The notes: generated by a model from the letters alone, not told the origin. Shown: positions 1-62,900, counted from the stretch's first letter. The stretch is DNA of 64,000 nt from Moniliella sp. 'wahieum' (GCA_003971905.1 RSEE01000017.1:496001-560000), one strand, 5' to 3'. Made by a program: numbers and translations.

Positions 1-3000
1 ACTCGGTGCGCTACTCGTTTACTGCGCCCCGCGTGTTCACCGCCCTGAACGCTATCAACATTATGGTCCAACCACTTGCTGAGATCGGGCAACAGATCGG
101 GTCACTAGTGGAGGCCTTGGCTAGCATCAAGCGGCTGGAGGAGTACCTCTTGTCGGATGAAAAGGTTGATGACGGCAATGATCTCCCATCCTCGAGTCTG
201 GACAAGGATGGCAAGTTGGAGATTGAAAGGAATGACTCGAGCTTGTGGGACCAATCGGGATCAGAAGCCATCCCCTTGGAGGAACTACCCAAAACCCCTA
301 ATATGGCTCCGAGTCTGACCTTGCCAACAACAGACGTGAAGGCCTCCCTATCACCTCTGGCCTCGCTCCATGTGTCGGATTCCCCTAACGAGCCGCGCTT
401 GGTGAACGCAAGCATTGGTTGGAAGGAAGAGACGGTCCTGTCTGATGTCTCCCTCGCCCTCGTCCCAGGGTTGACGATGGTCGTCGGTCGCCTCTCAGCT
501 GGCAAGTCGACACTCCTCAACGCCTTCTTGGGCGAGACGCGCATCCTGAGTGGCCATACCGAGCATCTACCTCGGCCAATCTCAGGGACGGAGCTGGTGG
601 GGTATGCACCACAAGACTACTGGACGCAAGAGACCATGACCATCCGTGCTAACATCGTATTCTACAACCCACTCGGGTACGATCCAGTGTGGTATGACCA
701 AGTTGTCGAGGCATGTGCCCTCAAACCCGACCTGGCCAAGTTTGAACTTGGAGACCAGCGTTTGGCCAAGAGTCTGAGTGGAGGGCAGAAGCAACGCATC
801 AACCTGGCCCGCGCGGTGTATGCCCGGCAAGCATTCATGTTTATCCTTGACGATCCGCTCAGTGCCGTCGATGCAAAGACTGAGGCGCACATTTGGACGC
901 ATTTGTTTGGCCCGAGCGGACTGCTCCAGGGCCGTCGTGTACTCCTCGCCTCCAACGCTGTCTTCCGTCTCAAAGATGCTGACCGTGTCGTTCATATTCT
1001 GCCGGGAGGGAAGGCCCTGCTACGCACCCCCAAAGAAGCATCTGCTGCTCTCGCTCACGACCTGGCACAGCAAGACGCAGCGGACACAGACACTCCTGCC
1101 GCCTTGACCGCTGGCACCGCTCCCGGAATTGTCCTGACTGTGGCAGAGGGACGCCGCAAACAGCTGCTCGAGGACGACATGCAAATTGGTCTTGGAGGGG
1201 AAGCGCAAGGTAAGGTCCAGATGGATCGTCTTGATATTCTCGAGGACATTGAAATGGACCAAGAGATGGTGGATGAAGACGAAGACCAAAACAAGATGGA
1301 TGAGGTATTTGAGAACCGGGTCGGCTTCTCGTCTTATTGGTTCTGGGTCACGGCAGCTGGGCCTTGGCGAGTAGCCGTTATGGTGGTCCTTCTCATTTTC
1401 ACTGCCATGTCGAACCTTGCCTACCAAATCTACATCCAGCACTGGACGGATCGGCGGGACGCGCTTGCACCTGGCACATATGGACCTATGATGGGTGGTT
1501 ACTTGGCTCTGTGGGCAAGCCTTTTCATCTTGTCGGCGATGTGCATCCAGTTTACTTTTGTCCATACCACGATCCCGGCCGGCTGGACCATCCATGAGCG
1601 CATCCTCCGCGCCGTTCTGGCTGCGCCCATGTCTTTTTTTAACGCCCGCTCTTCGGGACAAGTGGTTGCTCGACACTCGGGTGATCTCTTTATGGTTGAC
1701 ATGGAGTGGATTATGGCCCTGTTTGGATTCCTTCTTCTTGCCATCAGCCTGTTGGGAAGCTGCATCCTCATGATTGTCACAGCACCCTATACGGCTATCA
1801 CCTTTGTTGCAGCAGTGGCGATCGCGACCTTGATTCGTTGGATGTATCTTCCGAATTCGCGGCAAATGCGGCGTTTGGAGATGGCTTCTCGCTCCCCTCT
1901 TTACACCCTCTTTGGCGACTGCACCTCGGGATTGGCGGTGATTCGAGCTTTTGGGGCGGTGGAACCATTGCGAGATGATGAACACCAAGTACGCTACCAA
2001 CCTACAAAAGGCGACTTACTCCCTGTTCTCTGCCCAACAGTGGCTCCAAACCTGGCTTCAAATCGCAGCGATGCTCATGAATGTCACCCTCGTCCTCGTT
2101 GTCATTGGGCGGCGGCACTCTCACAGCGTCAACATGCTTGGTGTGGCACTTACTCAGACCGTTTCACTTTCCGGAGAAATCACCTGGGCAGTGACCAGTC
2201 TGATGGAGGTGGAGATTGTTGCCATCGTTTTTGAACGGCTCCAAGAGTTTGCCCAAACCGCATCCGAGTTCACCGTCGCTGCCGCTGCTGCGCGTCAGGC
2301 CGGGGTCAAACCCGTGGAGGAGGACCCTGCCAGCAATGGCGCCTCGTCCAAGGCTGATGTGGTTGAGAGCTCCGTGCACCGCGCGGGCGCCGAAATCGCT
2401 TTTTCGCACGTTGGTCTTGCGTATGATGACGGCCGTGAGGTGTTGCATGACGTTACCTTCACGGTACCCGCCGGGGTGCGTCTGGGCCTCTGTGGCCGCA
2501 GTGGGTCGGGCAAGAGCACGCTGCTGGCTGGTCTTTTGCGGATGCAGGAGATTTCGGCGGGCAGCATCTCCATCGACGGCGTTGATGTTCGTTCCATGTC
2601 CCTCGAGGAGCTGCGGCACATGATGACGGTAGTGGTGCAGGAGCCCTTCTTGGTGGACGGCCTGACGGTGCGGGACAACTTGTTGCTGGGTGGTGCCGAT
2701 CTCAATCCTGACCATGACAATGACGCGAAAGAGGCGAGCGGAGACGAGGCCATGTGGGCTCTGCTCAAGGAGACGGGACTGGAGGAGAAGGTGTCCAAGC
2801 TGGAAAATAAGTTGGCGACGCCTATGGAGGAGGCTGGCTTTAGCCGGGGCCAGTCCCAGATCCTGGCTGTCACGCGCGCTCTTCTGGGGGACAAGCCGAT
2901 TGTCGTACTCGACGAGGTGACGTCGAGTTTGGACCGCGAGAGTGACATGCAAATCCAGCGTTTGCTTCACGCGCATGCCAACAGTGGCAAACAGCGTGTT

Positions 3001-3175
3001 TACCATTGCTCACCGCATCGAGGACATTGTCGACTACGACGTGGTGCTCGTCCTCGACGAAGGGAAGGTGATGGAGTTTGGCCCACCTGCGCAACTTCTT
3101 GCCCGTCGGGATGGCATGTTCCGCACCTTGGCATCGCTGCAGGGTATCAATGTGGGCCGTCTGGATTCCCCATGA
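1..3175 (+). CDS. ABCC/MRP-type ABC transporter, 5'-truncated by the window (end of TMD1, NBD1, TMD2, NBD2); frameshifts near 1975 and 2990
   Basis: NBD1 has GRLSAGKST, LSGGQKQR and ILDDPLSAVD. TMD2 has LRAVLAAPMSFF and RQMRRLEMASRSPLY. NBD2 has GRSGSGKST, FSRGQSQ, VLDE and IAHR. Spread over ORFs 6..2234, 1951..3219 and 2942..3175. Confidence 0.95.
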
Positions 3176-3889
3176 CTTCCACTCTCCTAAATCCCCAAAC
3201 CATCGGGTTGGTTGGTTGATGGGGTTATGTCGGTTACGGGTTACAACAGTACGGTTATTTAGTTTCTTCTCACTTTTGTCACTGCTCATCAGCGCGCGCT
3301 TAACATAATTTTTCTACCATCATGTCCTGGGGCCTTTTGCTATGCTATGTCTTATTCTCCGCTCAATTCTCTCTGTTGTAGACTATTGCTCTTGACCAGG
3401 AAAGAAAGGAGAAGAAGGGAGAGTAGGGTCATGACCAAAACATGGAGAGAGCCCTTACCGACTGACACGTTCGAAGACATGTTGTCACAGAGCTCCGAGG
3501 TGGTACGTTGCGCACATGGAGATTACCCATGGCAGTCCTCACCTTCATAGTAGGTTATGCACGTTCACATCTAAGCTCCTCGAGTGATGATGCATCAATG
3601 AAGAGACACTAAAAGGCCACCGGGCCCACGGCCCGGTCAGCTGGTGAAGAGATATATATGCATGCCATCGACTATCGCAGATTTTCGTAATGTGTGGCAG
3701 CTACTCCGAACCAGTCGGAGAGGATGAATTGATGAATCCACGGAAAGACCCAGAAGACATATATAGGGAAGGGGGAGAGAAAGCTGAGCCCAACCAGTGG
3801 GTCTGCCATCAAAAAAGGGGGCACGCAACAACAAAAAGACGACCTTGACCAACGGGTGCACAGGGGGGAGGTGGGGATTGAGCCCGCTT

Positions 3890-5680
3890 TTAGATCCACA
3901 TCCCATTGCGAGCATGCATGGACTGCCGAGACCGGTGGTGGTGCATACGCTTTCCGAATGGGTAATCGAGGTGGCCTTGGGTGCGGGCTTGAACTGCTGC
4001 ATCACGTTCGGCACGAGTAGAGCGCCGGCGCTGTGACCCAGAACCCGACCCCGAACCCGAACCCGACCCCGACTCCGATCCTGAGTCCGATCCAGAGTCC
4101 GATCCTGAGCCCGATCCTGAACCCGAGCTGGACTCGGAGCCAGAGTCTTCTGAGCAAGATCCTGAGTCAGAACCGGTGTCAGAACCAGCACTTTCCGATG
4201 ATCCCGTGTCCGAGCCAGAGGAGTCGTCCGAGCATCCCGATCCTGAATTGGGGCCCGAACCAGAACCAGAAGAGGGAGCCTGTCCATTCTGGGATGAAGG
4301 CTTGGGGACGGCGGATGAAGCCGATGCACTGGCAACGCCGTACTGGCTGTGGTGGCCGGCCGAGGAAGCATGAGAAGCATGGGAAGCATGAGAGGACGCA
4401 GAAGAAGGCGCCGTGGAAGAGGCCGATCCAGATGAAGTGCCATTCGAGCTAATGGAACTCGATCCCGAGCCGGCAAACAAGGCGACGTTTTTGTAGTAGG
4501 TCTGCACCGCATTGGGGGTGGCCCATTCCGAACCCGACCCACCAAAGAAGGTGGTGAACATAATCTTGTCAACCCAGTTGCCAGACGAAGAGCCGCGACG
4601 GCCCAGACCGTTGGACCTCCGAAGGGAACGGCGCGAGTTAGACGATCCACTTCCCGAGCTGGATCCTGAGCTCGAGTCACTGGAGCCACCACTGGAGCCA
4701 CGGAAGGCAATGTTGTTCAAATGGATATTTGGGGTGGAGGCGCCATTCCAAAACAGTTGGACCATACCGTCGGCCTTTCCATCGGAGTTGAGCTTGACAT
4801 GCAAAGCCAAATCGTTCCACTTGCCCTTTTGGAAGGTAAAGGCCCCACGACCAATGGAGGTGCCATAATCGGAGTCGCAGATTAGCTTGGATCCCTGCGA
4901 TGTGGTTGAGTCCGCTGGGCAGAGCTTGTAGTTGGTACCTTGGAGGGAGGTGGGAATGTAGGCGTAAATCTCAGCTTCGCCATTGGTGCGCCACATGATA
5001 CGAGTAGACCAGCAGGAAGTTCCGACACCACCTTCTGACCCCCCCTCACAACCAGACGTATCAGCACTGAGGGTGCCTCCGCTTCCGCTAGCGACTGAGG
5101 AGTAAAGACCCGGGAGCTTTCCACCCTTTACGAAGTCGAAATCGTTTGGGAAGAAGACTGAATAGGCTAGCACCAGCTCCTGGCGCGAAGCGGAGTTGCC
5201 ACCCGAAGAGGAATGGGTGGCAGAGACGAATGGGTTGGAGGCCGAGCGAGAGTTTCCCGAACCCAAAAAGGGCTGAGAATAAAACGAAGTGCCACCGGAG
5301 GGAGTGGTATGCAAACCGTACGATTTCGCCCCATACTTGACCGACAGCACTTGACCCGAGCCCGCCGGGTCGTTGGTTAGGATCACATTGTCCGGGTTGG
5401 AGGAGATTTTGTTGTTGTACAGGTTGATGTGGCTGGCCAGCCAGCTTTCCGCAGGTTGATCGCCGCGCTTGGACGAATTGCCCCCGCCCCCACCAGAACT
5501 GCCGATGCCCCAAGACCAGCCTTGGGCATTCACACCGTTCCCGATGGCTCCGGCGGGGCCTCCGCCCACGGCAGAGGAGAGCGAGACAGACGTGGCAGTG
5601 AATCCAGTGTCGCTTTTTCCGGCGAGGACATTCACGGCGCCAACCAGGGCGGCGGTAGATGCAGTGAGAATCGTGCGCAT
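3890..5680 (-). CDS. Secreted polysaccharide lyase family 14 (alginate/glucuronan lyase-like) with Ser/Gly-rich tail
   Basis: Signal peptide MRTILTASTAALVGAVNVLA from ATG 5680. PL14 motifs YSVFFPNDFDFVKGGKLPGL, STRIMWR, YGTSIGRG and FTTFFGG. A TATA-like tatataaa lies about 180 bp upstream on the minus strand (~5857-5864). Confidence 0.88.
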   Translation of the reverse strand: MRTILTASTAALVGAVNVLAGKSDTGFTATSVSLSSAVGGGPAGAIGNGVNAQGWSWGIGSSGGGGGNSSKRGDQPAESWLASHINLYNNKISSNPDNVILTNDPAGSGQVLSVKYGAKSYGLHTTPSGGTSFYSQPFLGSGNSRSASNPFVSATHSSSGGNSASRQELVLAYSVFFPNDFDFVKGGKLPGLYSSVASGSGGTLSADTSGCEGGSEGGVGTSCWSTRIMWRTNGEAEIYAYIPTSLQGTNYKLCPADSTTSQGSKLICDSDYGTSIGRGAFTFQKGKWNDLALHVKLNSDGKADGMVQLFWNGASTPNIHLNNIAFRGSSGGSSDSSSGSSSGSGSSNSRRSLRRSNGLGRRGSSSGNWVDKIMFTTFFGGSGSEWATPNAVQTYYKNVALFAGSGSSSISSNGTSSGSASSTAPSSASSHASHASHASSAGHHSQYGVASASASSAVPKPSSQNGQAPSSGSGSGPNSGSGCSDDSSGSDTGSSESAGSDTGSDSGSCSEDSGSESSSGSGSGSGSDSGSDSGSESGSGSGSGSGSGSQRRRSTRAERDAAVQARTQGHLDYPFGKRMHHHRSRQSMHARNGMWI

Positions 5681-6513
5681 AGTGAAAGGGATGCGAAGGT
5701 GTGTGGGTGGTGAAGAGAGAATGAGGAGGGGAACAGGGGAGAGTGAAGGGGACCAAGCAAACCGACCAGCGGCAGGTGGGGTGGGATGGGAGAGAGTGAA
5801 GACGGTGGTGACGAGAGAGCTAGAAGGGGAGAAGTCTTTGGGGCGCACGAAAGAGTCTTATATACCTACGCCGTTCTCCCCTGGACTTGAAAAGGGAAGG
5901 TCGCTCTGCCGTTTATGGACAACAGACACGTTCTCGCGCTAGTCCCCGGATGGGCCGGGAGACTGACGAGCTGCGCCGGGCGAGATTGGCGCTCCCGACC
6001 TCTCCACCGTGGTTGTGCCCGCGCGGGGGCAGTGTGTGGCGCCAGGGCCAGGGTCCTCACATTTTGGGGAACAGGCGCACTGACGACCAGGTGGGGGGCC
6101 TAGGCACGGGGCCTCTCACAGCGAGCATCCGAGCCACTGGGATCGCCGGAACTGCCCTAGTGCCCTTCCACTGGCAGCCATCAGCGCATCTCCAAGCCTC
6201 GCCACCCTGTATTGGCGCTATTTGCCTCCGATGACTATCGATAACTATAGTACGTGCAGCCACCCTGGTTGTGGAAGTCTGGTATCGTTGCCCCACGAAG
6301 ACGAATATACACAAGATGGGCAATCGATGGAGTCACTCAATCCAAACCCGCATAGTCTGCCCGCTCCCCACAGCGCTCCTGGTGCCAGCGGGCAAGACAA
6401 AAACGAGGAGAATGGGCATTGGCATGTTGGAGCAGCTAAAGGGTCCCAGCATGGCCAAACTTATTGCGACTGTGCATTGCCCATTCGGCTCCGATGCCAG
6501 GATCCTGCCGCCA

Positions 6514-8945
6514 TCACACAGGCTCAAGTCTCAGGAAGAGGTGCTGCTGCAAAGTCATGCTTCCCAGCTGGTGCGCCAGCGCCGCCTCGTCCGCATCAAC
6601 TTGGTCCTCTGTATCCCCAGGCAAGGATGAAGGAGACGCAGTAGCCTTGGCCTTGGAGCGATCTCGCAGCACCCGGGTGGAAGGTGCAACCACAGTGCGA
6701 GAGTGGGAAGGACCAACTGTGCCGGGCTCTGCAACGGGGACTTGCCCGGGCAGAGAAATGGTCCAAGAGCGGAAGGTGGACAGAACCGAATCTAGCCAAA
6801 TTTGCTCCTTCTCCGCAGACTCGGTAATCAGACGTGGGATGGGTTTCTTGTTCCGTGATGATTGTTTCGTCCGGTCGACAACAACCATACCCCTTGATTG
6901 TGCGCTCAAACTGGTAAGGTGATGCACGTCCCACCATGATTGGAGTTCCTGGTTCAAGAGGGATGCTGGGGAAGGGGCAGCGAGGCCGACTGTATGGGCA
7001 AACGCTCCACTTGTGATAGCCCGATCAGCATACCCCCCCTCCATAAAGCTTACCAACTTGCCCTCGGCCACCTCATCCGCGAGCGCGGCAGCGTCCGACG
7101 CAAATTGATGATAGAATCCTGTCGGGACTGACTTTCCGTGCCGCTGCATCCCCGGATACTCGTGCTCGCATGCATCAAACCCGCAAGAGATGAGGACCAA
7201 TGAATGTTTCGGATCTGCGCCCTCAGCTTGGAAGAAGTGACGGGCCTTGGTAAAGAGCTGACTGTAGCGTGTTTGGTAGTGCTCGTAAAACTCCTCTGGA
7301 GAACCATATGGCGCGAGATGCACTGTTTCCTCCGAACGTCAGTCTTCTACCCCTACTCCTCTTCTCGCCCACCCAGTGACCAAACAAAAGGTGACATACC
7401 GTTCCAGATCCACTGTCCGTGGGCACCTTCAAGGCACGTGCTAGCCGCCATGACCATCTCAGCATCCCCCTGTTCGCATGGGTAGCTCTCAATGTCGTGT
7501 ACACTGCCATAGGAGATTTTGAGCCCGCGCGGGGGGATTGCGGCCGGTGGGGCAGGGGCGGGAGGGACAGTTCCCTTGCGGTGGCGAGAGGCTTGCTTAC
7601 GGGCCTGCTCGGCCTGTTGAATCAGAGACTCCCTTTTCAAGTCCTGCTGGACCGTGTCGGAGTTGATGCGCCAGGCCAGAGCCTGGGTACCATCTGGTGG
7701 AGGGATGAGCGATGCTCCTCAACAACAAGAGATAGAAGACGTACTGCCATGGTGAAGGTCAATATCAAGGATCGCCACGCGATCAATTCCGTGCTCGAGA
7801 TAAGCGTGAGTGGCAGCCACAACGGCATTGTTCACCCAACAAAACCCTGAGGTGCGTTCCCTGCACAGTGGTGTCCGGGAGGCCGGACGAGGACGAGAGC
7901 ACGCGGTGCCGGTGGTGGAACAGGATCCGCCGTACCTACTGAGACCAACGACGAAGTTACTTGCGCGTTGGCTCGGTGGGCTACGACTCGATCCACCCCG
8001 GACATGCATGCCCCCAAAGACGAGCGGATGGCTTCTCCGGATCCTCCCACATCCTTACGGATTGCGTCACTTAATCCTTCAGGGTCATCGATACTGGGAC
8101 CGCACAAATACAGATCGCCTTGGTGCATCGAGTCAGGGATTTCGCTGGGGGATAAATTCTTCGTCCGAATCTGAATCAGATGTCAAAAGGGTAGTGGATA
8201 CATCGGAGCGGGTAAAAGAGGTGGATCCCTCAGTCGTATCACCCTGTGAAGGGGCTTCACTCTTAGGTCCCAAGGCGGGCGACCTAGTAATGGGGATCGG
8301 TGCAGCAGGCGCTGCACGACAAAGCTTCTGGAGGTAAGAAGCGTATTCTCCTTCCCCTTGGAGGGAAGAAGAATACGGGCACCAGGGCCTCGGGAATAGG
8401 GTGTGTCGAGGTAAGAAATTAACTCGTTCTCATTTGCGTGAACGAGTGCCACGGCAGGATCCGCGGGGTCGAGGGACACTTGGCGCGTACTTTGAAGTAA
8501 AGGAATGCGTCGAGCTGGGGCAGCGAGGCGGCTCCCTGCCTGTTCATTTTCTGTGCTGTGCAACCAATTTTCATCCTGTTCTTCTTTGGTGGTAGCCAGA
8601 GGCACACCCGTTTCTTCGACCGCGTGGGGGGTCAGACGCGCAGTAGCTGCACAAACGCCTAGCAGGGCCGCACGGATGCGTTCGGGCCGTTCGACGATGG
8701 TGCTTAGGTCATGGCCGCGGACGAAGCGGTGTTGGACGGAGGCAGGGGCTACAACCACTTCTACGCCCACAGGCGGGGGCGTGGAGGGGGACACGGCAGC
8801 CTGGCTGAGGTGGGCAGGTTGACTGACGGAATCGACAGAGTCCTCGGGGTGGCGAAAGCGGCGATGAACCTAGCTGGGGTGAACCCGATCGAAGCTCGTT
8901 CTCAGGCGTCGCATGTGGACGCTGGATCTTGATCTTGAACACCAT
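6514..8945 (-). CDS. HOS3: Hos3-like histone deacetylase; intron 7694-7744; frameshifted, 3' end approximate
   Basis: Motifs HRFVR..DLSTIVERPERIRA, RPPGHHC, GFCWVNN, DIDLHHG|NGTQ (restored by the GTACGT..CAG intron), SVHDIESYPCEQGD, LISCGFDACEHE and MEGGY. Confidence 0.9.
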
Positions 8946-17843: not shown

Positions 17844-20800
17844 TTACTTGAGTGTGCTGCCCGATGCGGCGGAGGATGAGCCGCGGTAGAGCGGAAGGAG
17901 AGGTGCTAGGAACCCGGAACTTTTGCCCATGGGTTGGGCTAGGTTGTAGTCCGATTCGCGCTGTTGCGGCGTCGTCTTGCCCGGGGTAAGACCGGTGCTG
18001 GAACGGCGGAAGCGCATTTGCCTGGCGGGCCAACCAGCATAGACGCAGCCCGCCTCGGCAATCTCGCCTGACGCGACGAGCGTGTGTTTCGTAGAGCATC
18101 GAGTGCGGTTCCATGCTCGCGCCCGATAAAGCCGGGAGCCTGTTCGCAACGCACAGCCGTCCCCGATGGTGAGACGGTTGAGGCTAAACCTGCCGCGCGA
18201 GTTGATGTGGGCCACGACGAAGCATCGTCCAAGCTGACCTTATTGCCCATCGTGACCAACTCGGGTTCGGTTAGTTGCAAACTCGGTTTCCCCCCCGCCC
18301 AGATCGCACAATCTTCCCGATTGTCGCACCGAGCAGACGGAGGTAGAGAACGGCATACCAACTGCCCGAAATGCAGCCCACGATCCGCCCGCCAACCCGC
18401 GCCCGAGTAACCGTTGCAGCGAGAGGTGCAGTTGCCAGCGCTGGCAGTACGACGACATGTCCCAGTCGTACCGCCCCTCGCGCCGACGACCAATGATGAT
18501 CCATTTGGTCACGATGACCCAAGCAAAGGCCAACAACGCTAGCGTCGTCATGATGACAATGAAAGCAAGCGCAATGTACACATACACCAACGCTGGACGG
18601 TACCAGTGGTCCCAACAGGCCGGGCGCCTGTGCTCATAGTTCAACCGCGCGCGGTTGAGAATCACCACGGCAATTGGGGCGGGTGCAGCCCAGTAGACTG
18701 AACTGGCAGCGGCCATAAAACACATTGACCAAAACGATGAGGGGGTAGGGGAAAACAAGTAGGGCGCCTTGCGTTGGTAAACGCCCGACCAAACGGCGTC
18801 ACTGTGCTCTGGTCGGGGCGGATTTGCCAAAGCTGACTGGCTCACCTGCTTGGCCCCCATCCAGACCGATAACGCTCATAGTACCCGTTCCGGCGCGACA
18901 GAGCACCAGAGCCCATGACCGCTTGACGATCCACTGTTGTGCCAGGCAAGAGCGTCACGCGGTCCGCAATCATCGCCCCCGATGCGATGGAGATACGGTT
19001 GAAGCCAATCGAGTCGGAGGTAAACAGCTCGGAGCGCGAGCCAAACACCACATCGTCCCCTACACGGAGCAACTCTGGGTCAGGGCAGTACACGCCCGAG
19101 CCAGGCCAGTAGACCCTGCGGCCCACTTGTGCCCCCATCGCACGGTAGATGACCGAGGTCATTTCATAGTGGGTACAATGATGGCGAATCCGCGCCGTAG
19201 TTGGGGTTGGGAAAGAAGTTCCAAACACATCCATCTGCGGAACAGCGCCCATTGACTCGCATTGCGCATGGACCCTTCCTTGTTGCGCCCGAGAAGAGAC
19301 GCTTGACAAGGATACCAAGGATCATGTTGGAGAGAGGAGGCATACAGTTCCGCACGATGCGCGCGACAAAGTGCCAACCAATACGTTGTGGGTACGCAAA
19401 CCATGCAACGACACTTTGACGGAATCGGTCCGGTTGAACAAGAACGGCTGCGACAGCAGCATAAAGAGCGCAGCAAACAAGGGATGTAGCATAAGAACAT
19501 GATCCCATATTGATGGGAAGTCCAAGAAACACAATGAGGAAGATGTTGGGCTGGGGCACCTCACCCTTATTGTACGCGGCAAACCCATCTGCCGAAGGCT
19601 CCTCGTGCGAGGATGCCTGAGGTCCCCAGACCGTGCCATCGGGCAAGTAGGCACCCGGGGCAATTTGGGTAAACGTATTGACAATCGTGTGCCGTCCAAT
19701 CACCACCGGTTCAAGACGGAAGTAACCATCCCGCTCCACAGCAAATCCGCGGACCACACTACGATCGATTCGCGCGCCATCGTGGATTGTGAGCAAGTCG
19801 TACTCCGCCAACTTGGCAAACTTGTCAATCTTGACGTTGGTTCCAATGCGTGCACCAAGGAGGCGGTAGTATGCAATGCGGAGCGAGGGTGTAAGATTGA
19901 ATAACCCTTTGCCCGACATGGCCAGTGACTGGTTCACGATCCACCAACGCAGGTGGTAGTTGCACCACATGGGGTACTTGCCCGGACGATAGCGACCGAT
20001 CACGACCCATTTGAACAGGATAGCCGCAATGGGGCAGATGATCCGCGAAGTGAGACGAGCAGCAACAAGGAAGGCAAGCAAGACGCCCACCCGTTCCCAA
20101 AAGTTGTCCGAAATGTTAGGCGGAAAAGGCAAGGCCTTGCAAGATCACCGTCCATGTCCAGGCAGCCTTAAGAGGGTACATCAACATAAGAGGAAGGATC
20201 TGGACAAAAAGCACCCAGGGATGAGTTTGACTACGGGGCTGGTACCCGTGCGAATGCAGGTAATCTGGAATATCCCCATCCTGCTCGTAACCGTGGGCGG
20301 GGGAGCGAATGAAGCCATTTTTCTCGTCGGAATACCCGCTTGCCATGTATTCATCGTCATCGTCTGATCCCAGTTGTTCGTCAACCAGGCCAGCGATGCC
20401 GACAATGGTTGAATTGGTAAATACGGACGCCACTTCCAAGCTCGCTCCCGTCTCTTTCTTGATAGCATGGATCAGACGACCCAGGAGGAGAGAGTTTCCG
20501 CCCAAAAGGAAAAAGTCCGAGTCAGCGGTAATCGCACCTGAATCCATGTTGAGAAGCTTGGCAACACAGTCCCTCACGACCTGCGTAGAGTAGGACATAT
20601 CTGCTGCATTTTGCGCCCGCACCTCTTCGTTCATCGTGGCAAAGTCGAAACGGCCATCGCGAGTTCGGGCAAGGCGTTGACGGAAGACGTGCAACGGGTT
20701 GGGGACAATGTATCCATCCAGTACCCCAGCCAAGGCGCCATCAATATCAGCAGCATCGTACTCGGCATCTTCGTCAATGTGGAGGAAGGCTTCCGGTGCT

Positions 20801-22716
20801 CCGTCCGGCCGCATCTGCACGGCCACCTCTTGTACCCCAGGGATGCGAGCGCAGGCCCGCTCGATCGAGCTCAGGTCTATCCGCACCTTACGGCACGGGA
20901 TGGGAGTGCTGAGCGGGGCATTTTTGTCAGGCGCCCTGGCTTCAAAGTGGCGATCCAGCAGAGGAGTGTCGTCAGCGAGAGGCTGGATACCAAGGCGCTG
21001 GCCGAGCTTGATGCGAAGTGGTTTTCCGGCCTGGTTCTTGGGCAGTTCGTCCATGTAGACAATAGCGAACGGCCACTTCGAGGGGTGCAGTACATTGCGC
21101 AGCGTATTCTGTAGCTCCATCAACCCAATCCTTGGTTGGTTGGGCTGGGGCACTACCACTACACCAATTGTCTCTTGCAGAACTTCATGATCGATCGAAA
21201 AAGCAAGAGTTGCCTTGACACGTTCGCGCACATTGGCCGTGATGGCCTCCTCGATCTCAAAGGGGGAGATGACCTCACCACCCTTGTTGATGATTTCTTT
21301 TGACCTCGACGTCACGTAAAGGAAACCGTCGGCGTCCATGTGGCCTACATCGCCCGAGTCGAACCAACCAGCACGGGTAAAGCAAGATGTGTCCAGCTTC
21401 CCGGGCGCCACTTCGTATCCGTCAAACGTTGGCAGACCTCGAACACAATCGCACCATCAACACCAACAGGTACTGGTTTCTCCAATGTGCGAGGGTCCCG
21501 AATCGACAAGTCCGGACCGCAGGCTACCGGAGCACCCAGGACGCTCCAGCTGGTAGGTAACGGGCGGGGAAGCGATGGGCATACACTCGGTCATCCCATA
21601 CGAGGGAAGGATGGCACAGCGAAACGTGTCACGCATCTGCATCGCGAGCGTAGGGAGAAGACCACCAGCAGCGTTGCAAATCATCTTGATCTTAATGTCA
21701 CGCGCGACATTGATCTCCGGCTTGGAAGCAAGGATGGCTTGGTGCATTGTTGGCGCAGCGTAGTACCAAGTCGCGCCGAGGTTGCGTACCAACGTCCACC
21801 ATGTGGTGGCATCAAAGCCGGCACACATGATGGCACTGCCGCACGAAAAGAGGGGGGCCCACAGATTGCGGATAATGCCACCCACGTGGAATAGAGGCAT
21901 CATGTTCACTGGAGCAAAGGAAGGTCAGCGGACAATGTACACCAAAGGGATACGTCACCATGATGAACATACTATTGACCGATTCGGGTTTGAGCTGCCA
22001 CGAGTCCACAACACAGCAAGTGCCAACGATCAGGTGGCGCATGTGTAGGGGACGACCTTTTTGGTGCCAGACGTTCCTGACGTGTGAAGGACAAGGGCCG
22101 TGTCTTGGAGCTCATTGGGACGTGGTCGAGGCTGATTGCGCGTCGAAGGTGGGGCGCAGATGTCGTCGCCGTCGAGCACGGCCAGGTCAAAGAGACCGGC
22201 CGGACCGGTGAGGCGCATGTCGACAAAAATGACCTCGAGCCCATCGCGGGCATAGCAGGACCAAAGGTCGAGGCGCTCAATGGCGTCGCGGGTGGTGACG
22301 ATGGCGCGGGCGCGGAGACGACGAGCATCTTCGCGCAGCTCCTCGGACGTGCAGGCGGCATTGACGGGAGCGGCGGTATAGTAGGCGGAGATGGCCATGA
22401 GGGCCACTGCATTTTCGGGGCCGGTGGGCAGGGCAACCATGACGCGGTCGTTGCGTTGCAGGGGACGGGCGCGGGAGGAGACGGGAAGACGGAAGGCGGA
22501 GATGAGGGAGCGGAGCATGTTGTGGTCGAGGGGGGCGGTGGTGGAGGTCGGGGGACCAGAGGGCGGGGCGTGGGCTGGTGCAGAGACAGTCGAGGAGGGT
22601 GGTGATGCGGCCGCTGTCGGTAACGTGAGCTGCGACATGGGCGCCGAGGGGGTGGTGGCGGGGCGGGGGGGCAGGCGCCCCAGGATGGAGAGCGGGTATG
22701 CGCCCGAGGACGCCAT
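17844..22716 (-). CDS. NRPS-like enzyme: A domain, duplicated A-subdomain, T domain, then three Pls-type terminal domains with TM segments; intron 21909-21972; several frameshifts
   Basis: A-domain motifs LVLHTSGTSGTKKVVP, PLFHVGG, SYGMTE, WFDSGD, RSKEIINKGGE and LPKNQAGK. T domain DFFLLGGNSL. Terminal domains contain KWVVIGRYRPG..W / YYRLLGARIG, YRAMGAQVG, and KWIIIGRRREG..W / YLRLLGATIG, and the protein ends with YAGWPAR. Confidence 0.88.
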
Positions 22717-25700
22717 CGGAGGGGGGGAGCGATGGGCGCTGTGGTGGTGGTGGCAGCGGAGACGACGGCGGCCACGACGTAATGCGTAATGCAAGGCTGC
22801 GGCGGCTGCCTGCGCCCCGCCGGGCAAACGTGCGGGCGAGCAAAGTGCAGGCAGGCTGGGCCGGGGCTAAGTTGAGCCGCAGCGTGCTGCTGCTACTGAG
22901 TACCCGTGCTGAGTCCCACTGGCCGAGTGCGCTGCGCCTCCCTGCATGCATGCATGCCTATCGACTATCCAGCTCATGGGAAGCATTGAGCGCATCATGC
23001 ATCTGCATCATCGCATGCATCTCTCTCCCTGCAGCGCCCCCCGCAGGCATGCCCGTGACATGTGACGCGTGACGCCCAGCCTCAGCGCTGACGCTCACCG
23101 GTGACGCCGCTGCGACCCACCACCGCTTGGGGCCAGTGCCAGCCGCAGCTTGGGCCACCAGGCAGGTACCCACGAGTCACCCATCGCCCGCCCGCGCCTC
23201 AGCTCCAGCGCCAGCAGCTCAGCGCGCCGAGGCGCAGCGCCGCCGCGCCGCCCCAGTGCAGCATGTGGCCTTGTGTTGGAAGGCTGCCCCTCTGCCTGCG
23301 AGGAACCCGCCAGCGGACAGCGCTGCCAGGGGCGCAGTGCCCGCTGCCCCCTCTGGCCACCGGCCTCGTGGGGCTCCAAAGGGCACCGCGCGCCCACACC
23401 GCCGCTGCCTCCGACAGCGTGTCAGATCGGCGGGCGGCCGCCACCGGCACGGGCTTGCTCTTGGCAGAGTGGAGGGCAGTGCAGCCGTCGCTCCATCTCC
23501 GCGATTTGCAGCAGGCATGCAGTATGGCCCAGCGCTGAGCCTCAGCTGCGCTCAGCCTGAGCGCATCAGGTGGAACTACCAGTTGGCCCGCACTGGGCGG
23601 TGCGGGAGAGTGCTCTGGTGAGCCGCTGGGCTGAATCACGGAGTAGCGCAGCGCCTGAGAAACCCCCCGATCGCTGCTGCGCACACTGCCCATCGTCAAG
23701 CATTAAACGTTAAGCTTCCAGCTGCGAAACGAGCTACTCGCAGGCGGGGGGGCACCGTCTACCGGCTACTGGCCCTTCCACCGAACAAGCGATCACCGGC
23801 ACCAGATCACTGGCCCTGGCCATCGATCGAACCAAGCATGTCACACATCACACATCCCAAGTTACTAGTCCGTCTGGAGGCAGTGCGACAGTTGCGTTCA
23901 GCACTCGTGGCTACTGGCGTGCTTGCTGCCGGTACTGAGCTATTTCGTGCGTTGGCTCGACGTTTGCCACTGCCATCGGTGCTTTTTTGAAGCTGGAAGC
24001 TTGAAGCTAGCGAAGCTTGAATGTCGTCAACGTTCAACTTGACCAAGCTTGTACTACCTACGGTGACTAGGACTGGTAACCGGTGACCCGGCGACAGAGT
24101 ATCGTATACCCCACCGTGTCTTTTGCCCATCTCTCCTGGATCCTACAGACAGAAACACCATCTATCCCAAGACACGCATCTAATATCCTCAGCCGACCCG
24201 TTCATCCTGTTGGCCACCGCTGCATGACGAGATGTCATGATCCTCTCCGCAATGCGAAAAGAAGATGTCTGAACACACTGGAAACAACTTTACACGAAAC
24301 AAGACGGGCTGATGATTGATGATCGATGGGCCCGGATGAGCGGATACGCACTCTCTTCTGCCTCCTAGCTGGTATACAACAAGTTCTGCTCCCAATACGC
24401 AAAAGAGGGCTTCGGCACATCCAAACGCCGTGAGTAGGTCCCCTGTTTTGATGTGGGCCAGCCCACCCAAGGAGGATGCCATCTCCTCCCCGATGAAGAG
24501 ATGAGCAAGCCAACTAGCAATTTTGAGGACACGCCTTGTGAAGCGGAGCGTGTTGTCCCTTTGTACGCGTTTTTGTTGGTTTAGACCACCATCACCACTC
24601 GATTGCATTACCCTCGAGGACCATCAGGATTCCAGGTCTCAGATCTCACCAGTCCGACTGCCGAATCGCCTCACTTTCCGAGCAGAAGGCGGCTAAAAAT
24701 GGTAGCGACGCTCGGCTCGTGTATACACCACACCAACGTTACATGCGAAACGTTACAGCCAGGCTCTCATCCTGCAGAGTAACAACACAGTTGTCCAGGT
24801 GCGGGCATTATCGGGTGTGAGACATTGTGCGCGAACGCGAACTTCATCTGGTTCGTAACAAGAACACGGTACAATTGCTTGATGGGCCGTCCAGTGGGCT
24901 TGCATGATCCATCGCAACCAACACAAAGTTCCTCGCGCGCGATTTTGCGCATCCGAGGTCGCTGTGAAAAGAGCAGGCTCTGGTGACCCCGAAAGCTGTA
25001 AGCACACAAGACCGCTTCTTACTATGCACGTGCCGTTCCAGTTTTCCTACTTCGATCTCTAGCCCACGATCCTCGTTGATGCGCTGATGAACAAAGAACC
25101 TGGCGACTGGCACCTGTCATCGATCTCCATCTCTCCCGAGGGCGCGTATTGTGGTGGCGCAGTTCTTTCGACGATGGATCGGGGCGGCGAGCAGAGCGGA
25201 ACGGAAGGGCATCCACGGAGAGAATTGACATTTCAAGCCTTGCTGGCAATTCAATATTGACCGAGTAGTACTCACGTAATCAGCGATTCCAAACAAAGAT
25301 AGACAGTGCTCTTGGCCAGACTTAGTGCGCCTGTCTCCCTCTGCCCCCGGCTTCCCTCGATGCGATCGTTGATCAGCGACTATTAAGTGACGGTGGCGTT
25401 GGTTGGGCGGGGAGGGGGCGGGGAAGAACCAGATGCTTGGCTGGGTAATCCTACGCAGCTGGGTCCAGCGTCCAACATCCGACTTGCACTAATTCAGCGT
25501 CCCACAGCGGCCAGTCGCCGCTGTGCGCCTCTTACTCAGATCATGCTCATGCATCATGCATGTCACCCACTAGAGTCACTGTTTGGCCAAGGTCACGCTT
25601 CAAGTCCCCGCGTAGCCAAATCAGAGTCCGCTCTGCTCTGCTTGTTATCAGTACTGAGAGTACTTAGCAGGCCAGTTTGCCACACCACCACCACCACCAC

Positions 25701-41594: not shown

Positions 41595-43238
41595 ATGCAT
41601 TCGGAGTCGGTCATCTCTGCGTCCCCACCGAGCGCCTCGGGCGATGACTACTCCCAGTCGGAGAAGAAGGGGCAAGCTCCTTCCACGCATCACGACCCCA
41701 GCACCAAGGGCGACCTCGAGGTCACGAGCTATGCCTTGCCCTTGGAAGACGTCAAAGAGGTCTCTGACGAGGAAGAGAGGACGTATTCGAAGGCGGAAAT
41801 GTGAACTTCCGTACCATGTCCTGGTAAGTGTGCCCCCCGCCCCCTCTTGTCACAGTGCAAAACTTCATCCGTGAAATTGAGCGCGGATGAGCCCCCATGG
41901 GCCTGAGGCTAACCCAGCGCACTACTTCCCGATTTTCCAGGCCTTCAGCTGCTGTCTTGATTGCCAAGTTCCAGTTTGGTATTGGTGTTCTGTCAATCCC
42001 CGACCTTCTCCTCGCTGGGTTTCGTTCCCGGCCTCATCTCCCTCGCCATTCTCTCATTCATCACCACATACGGAGGCATTCTTATTGGCCGCCTGCGTGA
42101 GCGCCATCCCCATATCCACACTGTCTCGGACTTGGGTCAGATTCTGGGCGGCAAGGTGTGCCGTGACCTGTTTGGTGTGGCATATTGGATCCTTGTCGTT
42201 CTCACGGCTGGATCTGGAATCCTTACTGCGTCTATCGCCCTGCAGAACATCTCCGCCGGCCATGGTATCTGCTCTTTGGGATACTCGGGTGTCGTTGCTG
42301 CCGCTGCGTTGGTCCTCGGTGCATGGGCCCGGGAGATGAACAAAATCGCATATGCTGGTTGGGCTGGCATGACGTGCGTGTTCACCTCCATCATGGTACT
42401 CACCATTGCCGTCTTGGTGCGTGATCGCCCCGCGAGCGCTCCCCCTGGCCCAGTGCACAAGGAAGTCTACGCTGTCAACCACGTTCCATTCTACGTGGCT
42501 GTTTCGGCAGTGTCAAACCAAGTCTTTTCTCTCTTGGCCAACGTCACCTTCTACTCCATTGGTGCCGAGATGAAAAACCCGCGGGATTTCCCCAAGGCTG
42601 TTATCGCTGGGCAAGGATTCGTGATTATCTGCTACGTCTTTGTCGGCTGCGCTGTTTACGCTAAGCTCGGCAGTACATTGCCAGCCCTGCGCTGGGATCG
42701 GCTGGGCTCGTGTTCCGTAAGCTCTGCTACTCGATGGCTCTTCCTGGCTTGATTGTTTCCGTGATTATCTACACCCACATTGGTGCCAAGTGGATCTTTG
42801 TCCGTGCGCTTCGCGGTACCCCCCACCTGACCAACACGGGAGTTGTCCACTGGACTGCCTGGATCGGTTCCTACACTGGCTGCCTTGTCCTTGCCTGGGT
42901 CCTCGCCTGTGCGATTCCTATCTTTGATGACCTTCTCGGATTGATCGGCGCGACCGTCGGCTCGCTGTTCAGTATTGTCATTACTGGCGTGACGGCTTCT
43001 ACCTCCTCTCCTCGAAGGAAGACGAGCGCCACGGACGGGTAGCCTGGATCCGTTCTTCTTGGAAGAATGGATTCTCTTCGCCTCGGAAGATGGTCACTCT
43101 TACCGTCGCCTTACTGATCATGGCCGGTGGTGTCTTCCTCATCGGAGCGGGTGTGTACGGGGAGGCCGAGTCCATCGTGCAAGTTTACCGTAACCACGAG
43201 GCTGGCCGGCCTTTCGCTTGCGAAAGCCCAAAAAGTAA
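41595..43238 (+). CDS. AAAP-family (Aa_trans, Mtr-like) amino-acid transporter; intron ~41824-41940
   Basis: Motifs AAVLIAKFQFGIGVLSIP, RHPHIHTVSDLGQILGG, TFYSIGAEMKNPRDFPKA and AIPIFDDLLGLIGA, with multiple TM segments. TATAAAA at ~41502. Confidence 0.92.
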
Positions 43239-59938: not shown

Positions 59939-62900
59939 ATGCCGCAGAATTCAGGGCCATGCACCTCTTCCTCACGTCGAGAATGAGCATCCTGGGGAGG
60001 AGCAAGGTATGAATGCCGAGTCTTCTCGGGGGGATGAAACGCGTATTCAACCTCTCACCCGCCATGAATTGGTTGATGATCACGTTACTCCGGTTGAGCT
60101 TCCCCTACCGACCCTCGATGCCCAAAACGAACCGGGGAGCAGCAACTTCAAGACACAGAATTTGTCGAGGCGGAAGATGAACAGTTTACCGACGTGGAAA
60201 TGAACCGTTTGCCGAGCCGGAAGATGAACTGTTTACCGACTCGGATGTTGAACAGCAAATTCAAGATAACTTTGCGGTTGTCAGGGCCACCCTATTTGGG
60301 CGCGAGGATGAGTATGACGATGTTTCAGACGATGTGCCTGAGGAGCCTGACAACCTTGTGGGCAATAATACACTGGATGGAGTGGAAGCTGCGCATGGCG
60401 ATCAGGCGGATCCCACGTTGTTCTGGGCCCCGATGCGTATTGCGCGTCAGCAGGCTGAAGAATTGCAAGGAGGTGCTTCTCTTCGATTCGCGGAAATGCA
60501 AGACGCCACTAAGAGGTTCATTCAAGAATCATCTTGTCCAACCGGGACTTGCCCTGATGGTCAAGACAGCGGCTGGTATGGTCTGGAAAAAGAGGTGGAG
60601 ACTGAAGTTAACAATACAAGACGGCTCGCTCGGCTCCAGCGTCCAACGTGGAAAGACGGGGGCATCATTCATGCGTGGATGTTCATGATATGCAGCCAAG
60701 GTGACACAACGTTATGGGAGACCTTTCGGATGTTTGTTACAAAGGGTGGTCCTGGTGTGAACGAGACGGGCAGCATCCAAACCGCGGAGCTGAAGGCGGT
60801 GCGACAATCTGGATATGGAGCGGCCGAAATCAGGTCTTGTCCCAAAATGTGTGGGTTGCTTCTCGGACCTGAGAACGAGCCGGTTAAGTGCGATTGCGGG
60901 CAGGTCGTTCCCCCCTTGCGAGACGCTGATCGTCGTATCAATCCTTCAGCTGTTTACGTCTCCATTCCAAGCATCATGAGAGCTTTTTCATGAGCAAAAA
61001 GAACGCAGAGATGATGCACTACCATGATCGGGCTTTCCGTGAATGGGAACAGACCCCGCCTGCTGAACGACGGATTACAGATTATTGGTGTGGATCCCAT
61101 TATCGAAAGTTGCGTGCCACGATCCCCGAACTTGTTCAAGATCCTCGCTATGGACTGATTGGGCTATCTATTCATGGCTCTCATTTCAAGTCAGCCCATT
61201 TCGACTCAGGCCGCAAGCACGGATACTGGATGATCAAGGCAACCCTCTACAACCTGCCTCCAGAGTTTAGGGCCCAGGAGGAATATTGTTGGACAGTGGG
61301 GATTATCCCAGGTCCCTTCAAACGCTGTACCCTCAAAAGCATTGACTCCTATCTGATGCCCGTGTTCAAGGATCTGGAGCGACTACAGCGAGAGGGAATC
61401 AAGCTGTTCGACGCGGCGCGGGGAGAGTTCTTTACCTGGAAGGCCAGCATGATCTTTCTCACTGGCGATCAGGAGACCTCAGCCCTTATCAATCCCCTCA
61501 GCCTTTTCCGAGGCCGAGCCGGATGTCTGAACTGTGCCTCACTGCGACGAGTCCTGAGCGACCAGTCTATTCCACTGAAAGAGGCGAGCTTCTCACACGA
61601 CGCGACGGGGATATGGCCGCTTTTGCATTATTTGCAGTCCCGCCCGGTTAGTCAACGCACGGCCACCGCCCAAGACATTCAAGAGAATACTGGCTTCCGC
61701 TTTAACATGAGGGACGGCGAGTATGTCCCTCCCTTGAGCTGCTTCGCCAACGCCTATGATGAGTTTGGAACGAGCCCTGTGGAGGCTACGCATCTGATCT
61801 GTCAAGACCTGTTTCGATACATGGTCACATTACTTGCGTCCCCATTTCGGAGGAACGGCCTGGAAAGGGACCATGTGTGTTTTGCAACTCCCGGAATCGG
61901 CCAAGAAACGGATGAATATGGTGTTCAAATCCAGCGACAAGCTCTGTCCACCAGACATTGGTCAGGCTGCCCCCCGCAGCCTTGACAGCAAAATTCGACG
62001 AAGCCGACAATGTGGGACACGCTCAAAATTGTTCAAGGGATTCTAGTACCCTTCTTGGTTGGCGAGCAAGTGCTGGTTCGATCTGGCGAGCTGCAGCCTG
62101 AGGATACCCTGCATCCTGATGGTGTGCAACTATGGAGCCTCCTAAGCAAACTTACTGCAATCGTCATGGATGCAAGCGGTCTTACGGAGGCCGACATGAG
62201 CGAGCTGCAAGAGACGCAAAAGGCCTATGCCGAACTGCTGGAGAGGCTTCTCGTAACCGATGCGGAGGGGAGCAGCGCAGCGAGCTCTACAAAAGAATGG
62301 CGTACGTACTCTTATGTGATGATTCCTCTTTACGGACCGAGCTGACCATATCGTAAACAGAATGTCCCAACACTCTCTCCTCCATCTGGTTAGACCAGAT
62401 ACGATGCGTTGGTCACCTTGTCTCACCTGGCCCACTCCCATGAAAGAAGCAACGAGCGGACGGAGGAAGAGATTAGTAACGAGACCCTTCCCTTCTGGCG
62501 TATCAAGCGGTCTACAAACGTGACTCGTGATCGACATGCTATCTTGGCGCAGGGACGAAACAAAACTTGGCCGCGAGGTGGACAACTGCGACGCGAGCAT
62601 CCCTGGCCAGTCGGGTTCCAACTCCAACGTCAATTCACGCCTTTGGAAACAGATGGAATGCGGAACCTGATCTCCAACACGGGCGATGAACGTTCGAAGT
62701 CTGTGGGGCCATGTGAGGCGAGACTTGCAGCCGACAAACGTTTGCACCTATACATTGCTATACGCCGCACCTTTGATCACTTTGAAAGTCTACTGTCCGG
62801 AGCAAATTTGTGGAAGAGAACACATTGAAAAAATGTCCTATGTAGCACTTGGCCATGATCAATCAGGAGGGACCTGTCCCCAAGGCAAAACCAAGAGGAA

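Follow-up and report, generated by a model that had tools for sequence, protein, structure and literature searches.

What does the large synthetase gene found in the genome of the basidiomycete Moniliella sp. 'wahieum' make, and is this gene functional at all? It occupies 22716..~17844 on the minus strand of the 64,000-nucleotide stretch of DNA analysed here (GCA_003971905.1, RSEE01000017.1:496001-560000; "the window" below means this whole stretch), and its stop-to-stop open reading frames (ORFs) are scattered over all three frames. The original prediction, made from the sequence alone, described a stand-alone membrane enzyme, possibly a one-gene pathway to an uncharacterised polymer or acylation, resembling non-ribosomal peptide synthetases (NRPS), laid out like epsilon-poly-L-lysine synthetase (Pls) and possessing an adenylation (A) domain of the acyl-/oxalyl-CoA ligase type. 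Our best reading is that the gene is an intact basidiomycete (Ustilaginomycotina-type) member of a fungal family which appears to hold the polymalate (PMA) synthetase of Aureobasidium. We put the probability that it codes for a membrane polyester synthetase loading L-malate and making polymalate at roughly 0.6; the architecture, the homology, the place in the tree, the conserved acyl pocket and the origin of the frameshifts in assembly errors are shown by the data, and what we infer is malate, polymalate and the formation of esters by the C-terminal domain.

Domain architecture of the synthetase

Every motif quoted in the original prediction is present in the minus-strand translation: LHTSGTSG, PLFHVGG, TWYYAAPTMHQAIL, KEIINKGGEVISPFEIE and GGNSL (20488-20502), as well as the repeated KW..IGR and Y.RLLGA.IG. 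Pfam searches of the window pieces and of the homologues returned only AMP-binding, AMP-binding_C, PP-binding and weak Hexapep matches, and no condensation (C), thioesterase (TE) or reductase (R) domain was found in either set. The protein is composed of an A domain, a second and degenerate AMP-binding_C-like (A_sub-like) subdomain, a thiolation (T) domain and three successive units, each consisting of a pair of transmembrane (TM) helices and a left-handed beta-helix (LbH) domain (Table 1). We hold this architecture and the family assignment with high confidence.

PF13193 matched two stretches of the 446-residue piece, the better of them (residues 198-268) lying downstream of the true A10 lysine. 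Residues 504-572 of a Mycena homologue, P0058, likewise match PF13193 in the corresponding region. Within GGNSL, the serine that takes the phosphopantetheine is found in every one of the 62 acyl-type rows of a 69-row alignment. TM1 fell below the threshold of the hydropathy scan and was assigned from a hydrophobic stretch in the translation.

Table 1. Features of the synthetase gene, listed from its 5' end to its 3' end (positions are those of the window)
Feature	Position	Strand	Basis or remark
Whole gene	17844..22716	-	A, second A_sub-like domain, T, (TM pair + LbH) x3; ~1590 codons after frameshift bridging
ANL-type A domain, up to the catalytic Lys motif (21013-21030)	21013..22461	-	Two pieces matched by Pfam AMP-binding
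Only intron, 64 nt, GTATGT...CAG, phase 1	21909..21972	-	In all five frameshift-aware homologue alignments; boundaries from sequence
A-domain pocket motifs PLFHVGG; NAAGG; SYGMTECMP	21877-21897; 21661-21675; 21577-21603	-	Alignment path
Second, degenerate AMP-binding_C-like subdomain, between the A10 lysine and the T domain	20653..20865	-	Pfam PF13193; coordinates calculated from its residue range
T domain	20386..20583	-	Pfam PP-binding match (E 1.4e-13) to piece 20119-21456, residues 292-357
Membrane helix pair 1 (TM1, TM2)	20034..20229	-	TM2 (residues 858-876) by hydropathy scan
C1 beta-helix (hexapeptide) domain, left-handed, KW..IGR and Y.RLLGA.IG	19506..20015	-	TIGR02353, E 1.3e-24
Membrane helix pair 2 (TM3, TM4)	19300..19544	-	Hydropathy scan; three frameshifts in this zone
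Assembly deletion, extra C in the X1 contig behind 19413	19413..19414	.	Frame restored; alignment predicted a missing base at 19413
Assembly deletion, extra G in the X1 contig behind 19292	19292..19293	.	Frame restored; alignment predicted a missing base at ~19297
C2 beta-helix domain, THYEMTS then Y.R..GA.VG	18880..19174	-	TIGR02353, E 1.2e-6; WcaF-like matches (piece 18845-19321); weak Pfam Hexapep
Membrane helix pair 3 (TM5, TM6)	18510..18765	-	Hydropathy scan
C3 beta-helix domain with invariant histidine (motif 18186-18218)	18003..18509	-	Alignment columns

The C-terminal domain is related to that of Pls and PosA

The Pls-type layout claimed for this protein is borne out by profile matches, a hydropathy scan and structural models. 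TIGR02353, the NCBIfam profile of the terminal domain of Pls and PosA (epsilon-poly-L-lysine and delta-poly-L-ornithine synthetases), matched two window pieces (86.6 bits for the better one) and five out of five full-length homologues (E 1e-49 to 3e-58 and 169.2-197.8 bits, each match being split into three or four stretches), but all these scores, those of the homologues and of the window pieces alike, are below the curated cut-off of 423.1 bits, which counts against the assignment. Hydrophobic helices were located ahead of each C-terminal repeat by the scan. In the AF2 model of the homologue P0054 (1158 aa, built from a 43-row alignment; mean pLDDT 84.5), three pairs of long helices, the first at 447-479 and 487-520, are each followed by a region of short-strand beta-helix.

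According to the available part of the PosA paper (PMC10522769), its terminal domain is made of six TM helices arranged in three pairs and three soluble domains of ~180 aa, C1-C3, and the predicted PosA model has a helix-pair/beta-helix arrangement matching that of P0054; in the similarity network given there, the fungal clusters are reported as being under 1500 residues. Pls and PosA have in common with the window protein the A-T start and, after it, a terminal domain of ~730-800 aa comprising three TM pairs and three beta-helix domains. Common motifs include KW..IGR...PG after TM2 and TM6, Y.RLLGA.IG occurring three times and a histidine in C3; they are found both in the acyl-type family, to which the window protein belongs, and in the seven amino-acid-type outgroup rows, which are Pls/PosA-type by their architecture, one being named as such. 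The C3 histidine is kept in 62 of the 62 acyl-type rows and in all seven outgroup rows. Judged by sequence, the window protein's C-terminal domain is a true Pls/PosA homologue, the homology being clear despite the score below the cut-off.

Searching with the 1158-residue model in Foldseek returned A-domain matches only, therefore the window's own C1 piece (204 aa) was folded and searched alone. Its model (pLDDT 94.4) has maltose/galactoside O-acetyltransferases and serine acetyltransferases as the best PDB folds, with probability up to 1.00; TM-scores range from 0.16 to 0.50 and only two counted matches have E <= 0.001, the best being marginal (6.6e-4). A sequence search of PDB with C1 has found no useful solved relative (best E 0.82). 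Hexapeptide O-acetyltransferases (maltose/galactoside, serine, WcaF) are thus the closest structural matches of C1, at TM 0.3-0.5, and weak sequence matches to them exist as well. They differ from the window protein in two respects: the latter has three beta-helices in one chain, tethered to membrane helix pairs, and its proposed acyl donor is a carrier-bound thioester instead of acetyl-CoA.

This resemblance permits a reading in which the enzyme is not a polymerase but an acyl-transferase, carrying out a single transfer onto a hydroxyl of a membrane lipid or a cell-wall polysaccharide. The C domains do look like sugar and polysaccharide O-acetyltransferases (WcaF and HpsU matches, maltose/galactoside folds), and the conservation of the family from chytrids to mushrooms would fit a housekeeping modification of the envelope. 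However, the characterised enzymes with this C-terminal domain that appear in the literature examined, as far as it was available, are all homopolymer synthetases (Pls, PosA and PMA synthetase). We consider a simple acyl-transferase quite unlikely and prefer a polymer-forming enzyme.

The A domain belongs to acyl-CoA ligases and lacks the oxalate signature

The best NCBIfam matches of the A domain are a long-chain fatty-acid-CoA ligase (E 6.5e-30) and FadD7 (E 2.6e-19), while the amino-acid adenylation profile TIGR01733 gives only E 1.9e-4. PLFHVGG occupies the position where FDxS is expected in the amino-acid-type A domains of Pls and PosA, and the window protein does not have an A domain of that type. 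The solved structures closest to the homologue P0011 (Thecaphora frezii, 1595 aa) are oxalyl-CoA synthetases: 6qjz (LsOCS, E 9.7e-49), 5ie0 (AtAAE3, 6e-47) and 8aff (Pcs60p, 3.7e-40), followed by MatB malonyl-CoA synthetases. The acyl/oxalyl-CoA-ligase character seen by the original prediction is therefore supported, and so is its suggestion of a non-amino carboxylic acid as the substrate. The gate histidine of PLFHV is found in oxalyl-CoA and MatB synthetases as in the window A domain, and so is the catalytic lysine. They use free CoA as the acceptor, whereas a fused carrier is proposed for the window A domain, which is followed by the extra A_sub-like domain; Pcs60/AAE3 enzymes are stand-alone proteins of ~55-60 kDa, while the A domain of the window protein is joined in one chain with a carrier and a membrane domain of 800 aa.

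The same division is visible among the long proteins with a related C-terminal domain. Scanning 1.84 billion representatives with the C1 piece yielded 1825 proteins at E <= 0.001, of which 190 had E <= 1e-30. The 91 listed representatives of at least 1000 aa were scored with phmmer against the P0011 A domain: 42 were of the acyl type (214-843 bits, mostly 1450-2200 aa), 37 gave no score and 12 were intermediate. Many of the 37 non-scoring proteins are ~1300-1360 aa long and have FDxS, i.e., they are of the Pls/PosA type. The two A-domain classes separate cleanly by these scores.

These data bear on the possibility that the gene codes for a cationic poly-amino-acid synthetase like Pls. What the two have in common is the Pls/PosA C-terminal domain, with identity of ~22% to the window protein. 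But the A domain has no FDxS and scores like acyl-CoA ligases, and the acyl-type A domain gets no phmmer score against the 37 long representatives mentioned above, the Pls/PosA-type ones among them. The C-terminal domains differ too: the residues following the C3 histidine are I-N-S-R-G in the acyl-type clade and L-F-E-D-R in the outgroup, so that the acidic E-D is replaced by S-R in the window gene (H-L-F-E-D-R vs H-I-N-S-R-G). This may be a charge difference fitting cationic versus anionic polymers. A cationic product can be practically dismissed; while Pls and PosA make cationic isopeptides, the product of the window gene is likely an anionic polyester.

In the available part of the paper on grass-pea oxalyl-CoA synthetase, eight residues are said to shape the oxalate pocket of AtAAE3, and two of them, Ser289 and His319, are reported as conserved only in oxalyl-CoA synthetases. 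We mapped the AtAAE3 positions by HMMER alignment onto the 43-row family alignment and counted residues in the 42-43 filled rows. Val215 corresponds to Val or Ile, His216 to Gly, Cys288 to Ala, Ala313 to Gly and Met314 to Met (42 out of 42 filled rows in each case); His319 is replaced by Pro and Lys500 is retained in 43 rows out of 43. At the position of Ser289, Ala stands in 34, Gly in seven and Ser in one of the 42 filled rows. The window gene has Ala and Pro in place of Ser289 and His319, and Gly in place of His216. Since the two oxalate-specific residues are Ala and Pro, oxalate, which the likeness to Pcs60 had brought into consideration, is an unlikely substrate; the A domain is, as far as its residues tell, a relative of oxalate and malonate ligases with a wider pocket devoid of the oxalate signature.

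The closest characterised relative is likely the polymalate synthetase of Aureobasidium

The PMA synthetase (PMAs) of Aureobasidium melanogenum was reportedly described by Wang and co-workers in 2020. In the parts of the literature available, this protein (QHD40385.1, gene of 5049 bp) is presented as an NRPS-like enzyme with A-like, T and C-like domains, six TM helices and no TE, and as the key malate-polymerising enzyme, with malyl-AMP, malyl-S-enzyme and ester bond formation as the proposed steps. A review, likewise available in part, states that deletion of the PMA synthetase gene had no effect on growth, and that about one third of PMA production was recovered by restoring the gene. The A-like, T and C-like membrane domains, the six TM helices, the absence of TE and the length of ~1600-1690 aa are all as in the window protein.

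Aureobasidium proteins with the architecture of the window gene form two clusters, P0353 (126 members) and P0392 (52 members), of 1685-1690 aa. The A. pullulans protein representing P0353 aligns with the window protein over its full length (40.5% identity over 1271 residues and 42.6% over another 270) and has a longer N-terminus, window residue ~37 being aligned to its residue ~116. All eight mapped pocket positions (V G A A G M P K) are identical in the window gene and in the Aureobasidium protein, in columns which are near-invariant in the family, and P0353 and P0392 belong to the sister clade of the window gene. Going by organism, length and architecture, these clusters appear to be the published PMA synthetase; we equate P0353 with PMAs by inference because the accession was not seen among the listed members. 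The claim that the enzyme is of an uncharacterised kind has to be given up, as a protein with the same architecture has been described.

Several points weigh against this identification and against polymalate as the product. QHD40385.1 is not among the 15 listed out of the 126 P0353 members, whose names are generic, and it was not found in one supplementary file of PMC11905612 either. With the identity to the Aureobasidium protein being only ~40%, the substrate could have changed. Aureobasidium is an ascomycete known to make polymalate, whereas the window's host belongs to the Basidiomycota, for which our thin literature search turned up no polymalate producer.

These points leave some room for the same machine working with another monomer (malonate, oxalate, tartrate or another hydroxy- or dicarboxylic acid), in which case the product would be an undescribed polymer. 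The substrate is deduced by comparison, oxalate and malonate are the substrates of the A domains of known structure most similar to it, and an identity of about 40% is compatible with such a change. Yet the pocket is the same as in the Aureobasidium protein at eight positions out of eight, both oxalate-specific residues are replaced, and chaining by acyl transfer is impossible for a monomer which has neither a hydroxyl nor an amine. Another monomer is therefore improbable, if the least so among the alternatives considered, and L-malate is preferred.

Proposed mechanism

The following sequence of events would account for these features. First, the ANL-type A domain would adenylate a small hydroxy-dicarboxylic acid, most likely L-malate. 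Second, the T domain would take over the acyl group on its phosphopantetheine arm. Third, the C-terminal domain would link the units by ester bonds and release or extrude the polyanion at the membrane without a thioesterase, moving the chain across this membrane or along it. The machinery of this last step would consist of the three O-acetyltransferase-like beta-helices placed on six membrane helices, as in Pls and PosA.

A very probably intact gene with a frame broken by assembly errors

A gene model derived from the ORFs alone was rejected; tblastn with three homologues showed frame jumps with only a few bases between the matches. As these frame changes leave no room for introns, we used a frameshift- and intron-aware alignment of protein to DNA, which permits codons, frameshifts and GT..AG introns, with five homologues as queries. 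The only intron interrupts the ATG codon of ...ESVN|M|NMMPLFHVGG. Apparent frameshifts at 21972 and 21907 are only an effect of the intron phase and were excluded from the count.

Aligned to P0011, the gene covers 1555 codons with 69% identity and no in-frame stops. This required 22 single-base frameshifts, 16 of the missing-base type and six of the extra-base type; the other four homologues gave 19-22 events at nearly identical sites. Of the gene boundaries given in the original prediction, the start is right (ATG at 22716), but 17844 has to be taken as a provisional stop: conservation is weak in the C-terminal tail beyond ~18003, and the five homologues do not agree about a last frameshift. 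The first ~60 codons are rich in Pro and Ala and contain two of the frameshifts. A local GC peak (0.667 at 22000-24000, compared with ~0.55-0.6 elsewhere) spans the 5' end of the gene and its promoter side.

Are these frameshifts real, making the gene a decaying pseudogene? Their uneven distribution would speak for this reading: the stretch from 19504 to 18001 contains 16 of them, that from 21445 to 20118 not a single one. Against it, no in-frame stop is present in 1555 codons, and identity to the homologues is maintained in every segment of the gene (P0011 alignment). Decay is disfavoured because 22 indels would have accumulated without a single nonsense substitution and with conservation throughout.

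Sequencing reads support the same conclusion. One public run (X1, share of words 0.08) matches the locus and covers six bins out of 30, its contigs spanning 19249-19445 and 20628-21025. Both predicted frameshift sites covered by these contigs are repaired there (Table 1), each insertion making a pair out of a single base. The only substitution, at 19279, is synonymous as we read it, falling in the third codon position of a retained Lys. Along 20628-21025, where no frameshift is predicted, the contigs are identical to the window. On the other side, the reads check only two of the ~22 frameshifts at a low contig depth (2.3-2.7), and the X1 contigs may come from the window's own sample; the repair therefore demonstrates that the bases are present in the reads, and not that they are present in another strain. 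No RNA run with the locus was found among the public runs searched.

Similar frame breaks occur in other conserved genes of the window. In the histone deacetylase gene (~7746-8182, minus strand), Pfam profile positions 76-122 and 116-154 are matched by overlapping ORFs in different frames at ~7850; in the amino-acid transporter gene (~41961-43039, plus strand), which is broken near 42700, profile positions 257 and 318 are ~164 nt apart in different frames. Neither break has space for an intron. Since two other conserved genes are affected likewise, indel errors concern the whole window, and the frameshifts of the synthetase gene are assembly errors. A pseudogene is very unlikely; in the organism itself, the gene is very probably intact. 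The possibility that its two halves are separate genes disappears as well, the broken frame being an artefact of assembly according to both the P0011 alignment and the X1 contigs. In practical terms, the assembly of this window needs polishing.

Distribution and phylogeny of the family

Homologues in other fungi, expected by the original prediction, are numerous: proteins of ~1600 aa are present in Basidiomycota, Ascomycota, chytrids and Mucoromycota, and in some protists as well. When 8000 candidates were scored with the 446-residue piece as the query, 314 of them reached E <= 0.001. The 120 best of these are mostly 1200-1670 aa long, with 50-70% identity over the piece, and those of them that are named come nearly all from basidiomycetes, e.g., Ceraceosorus, Tilletia, Thecaphora, Violaceomyces, Malassezia, Trametes and Mycena. 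One protein, P0032 (1395 aa, 63% identity over the query piece), is labelled as belonging to the fern Adiantum nelumboides and is probably encoded by fungal DNA in that assembly. In P0058 (residues 1477-1518) and many other Mycena/Agaricales homologues, a C-terminal RING finger (C3HC4) is fused to the synthetase; none was found in the window gene, in the frames examined.

Named acyl-type members include the chytrids Polychytrium and Nowakowskiella, Halteromyces of the Mucoromycota and, among Ascomycota, Aspergillus, Penicillium, Fusarium, Colletotrichum, Erysiphe, Geopyxis, lichen fungi and Aureobasidium. Outside fungi, they were seen in the protist Artemidia, the green alga Mesostigma, the dinoflagellate Gymnodinium and a metagenome-assembled genome (MAG) of Myxococcota. 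The protein from this MAG (P0195, 1452 aa), whose A domain is of the acyl type, splits off close to the base of the acyl-type clade, which hints at the presence of this architecture in bacteria too. No Physarum protein was among the 30 representatives looked up by name, a result of little weight as many of them are unlabelled.

Two trees were built, with FastTree from 69 rows and a quick one with IQ-TREE from 33 rows, the amino-acid-type enzymes serving as the outgroup on a long branch. In both of them, Basidiomycota (support 100) are sister to Ascomycota including Aureobasidium (100), with the support of 100 for the sister node, and the chytrid clade comes next outside the two. The window gene groups with Ustilaginomycotina and Malassezia (support 100). 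Because of this pattern of sister phylum clades, the gene is to be seen, on phylogenetic grounds, as an old and vertically inherited fungal gene.

Genomic neighbourhood

No Pfam match was found within ~5 kb on either side of the synthetase gene in ORFs of at least 130 aa. At ~12-18 kb from the synthetase, there are genes for an ABC transporter (3-3216, plus strand, in two overlapping frames) and a polysaccharide lyase of family 14 (3893-5857, minus strand). An ORF at 60930-61982 (plus strand) matches Transposase_21 (tnp2 family) with E 8.3e-14.

Significance of the family

Overall, the sequence was read correctly by the original prediction, but its strangeness was overrated. The gene is of a known kind: many genome annotations contain such proteins under the names 'NRPS-like' or 'acetyl-CoA synthetase-like', and there is one member that has been studied. 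New with respect to the literature examined, as far as it was available and with no search aimed at basidiomycete members under other names, are the presence of the family in basidiomycetes and its wider distribution, the conserved non-oxalate pocket and the motif-level link to Pls/PosA.

We tentatively suggest that membrane-bound synthesis of an anionic polyester by this single enzyme could be an ancestral and nearly universal fungal trait. It would be shared by chytrids, Mucoromycota, Malassezia and mushrooms, and related enzymes would exist in a green alga, in a dinoflagellate and in the organism behind a myxobacterial MAG. The product would be polymalate or its close relative, noticed so far only in Aureobasidium, Penicillium and Physarum, and the change from L-F-E-D-R to I-N-S-R-G could set the charge of the polymer.

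The only functional study of this enzyme class in the literature examined concerns Aureobasidium, where the interest is industrial, polymalic acid being a biodegradable drug-carrier polymer. An enzyme with an identical acyl pocket in basidiomycetes and far beyond constitutes a testable candidate for the synthesis of polymalate-like polymers in many fungi. Besides, the anionic and cationic synthetases make a natural pair for working out the unsolved polymerisation domain of the Pls type.

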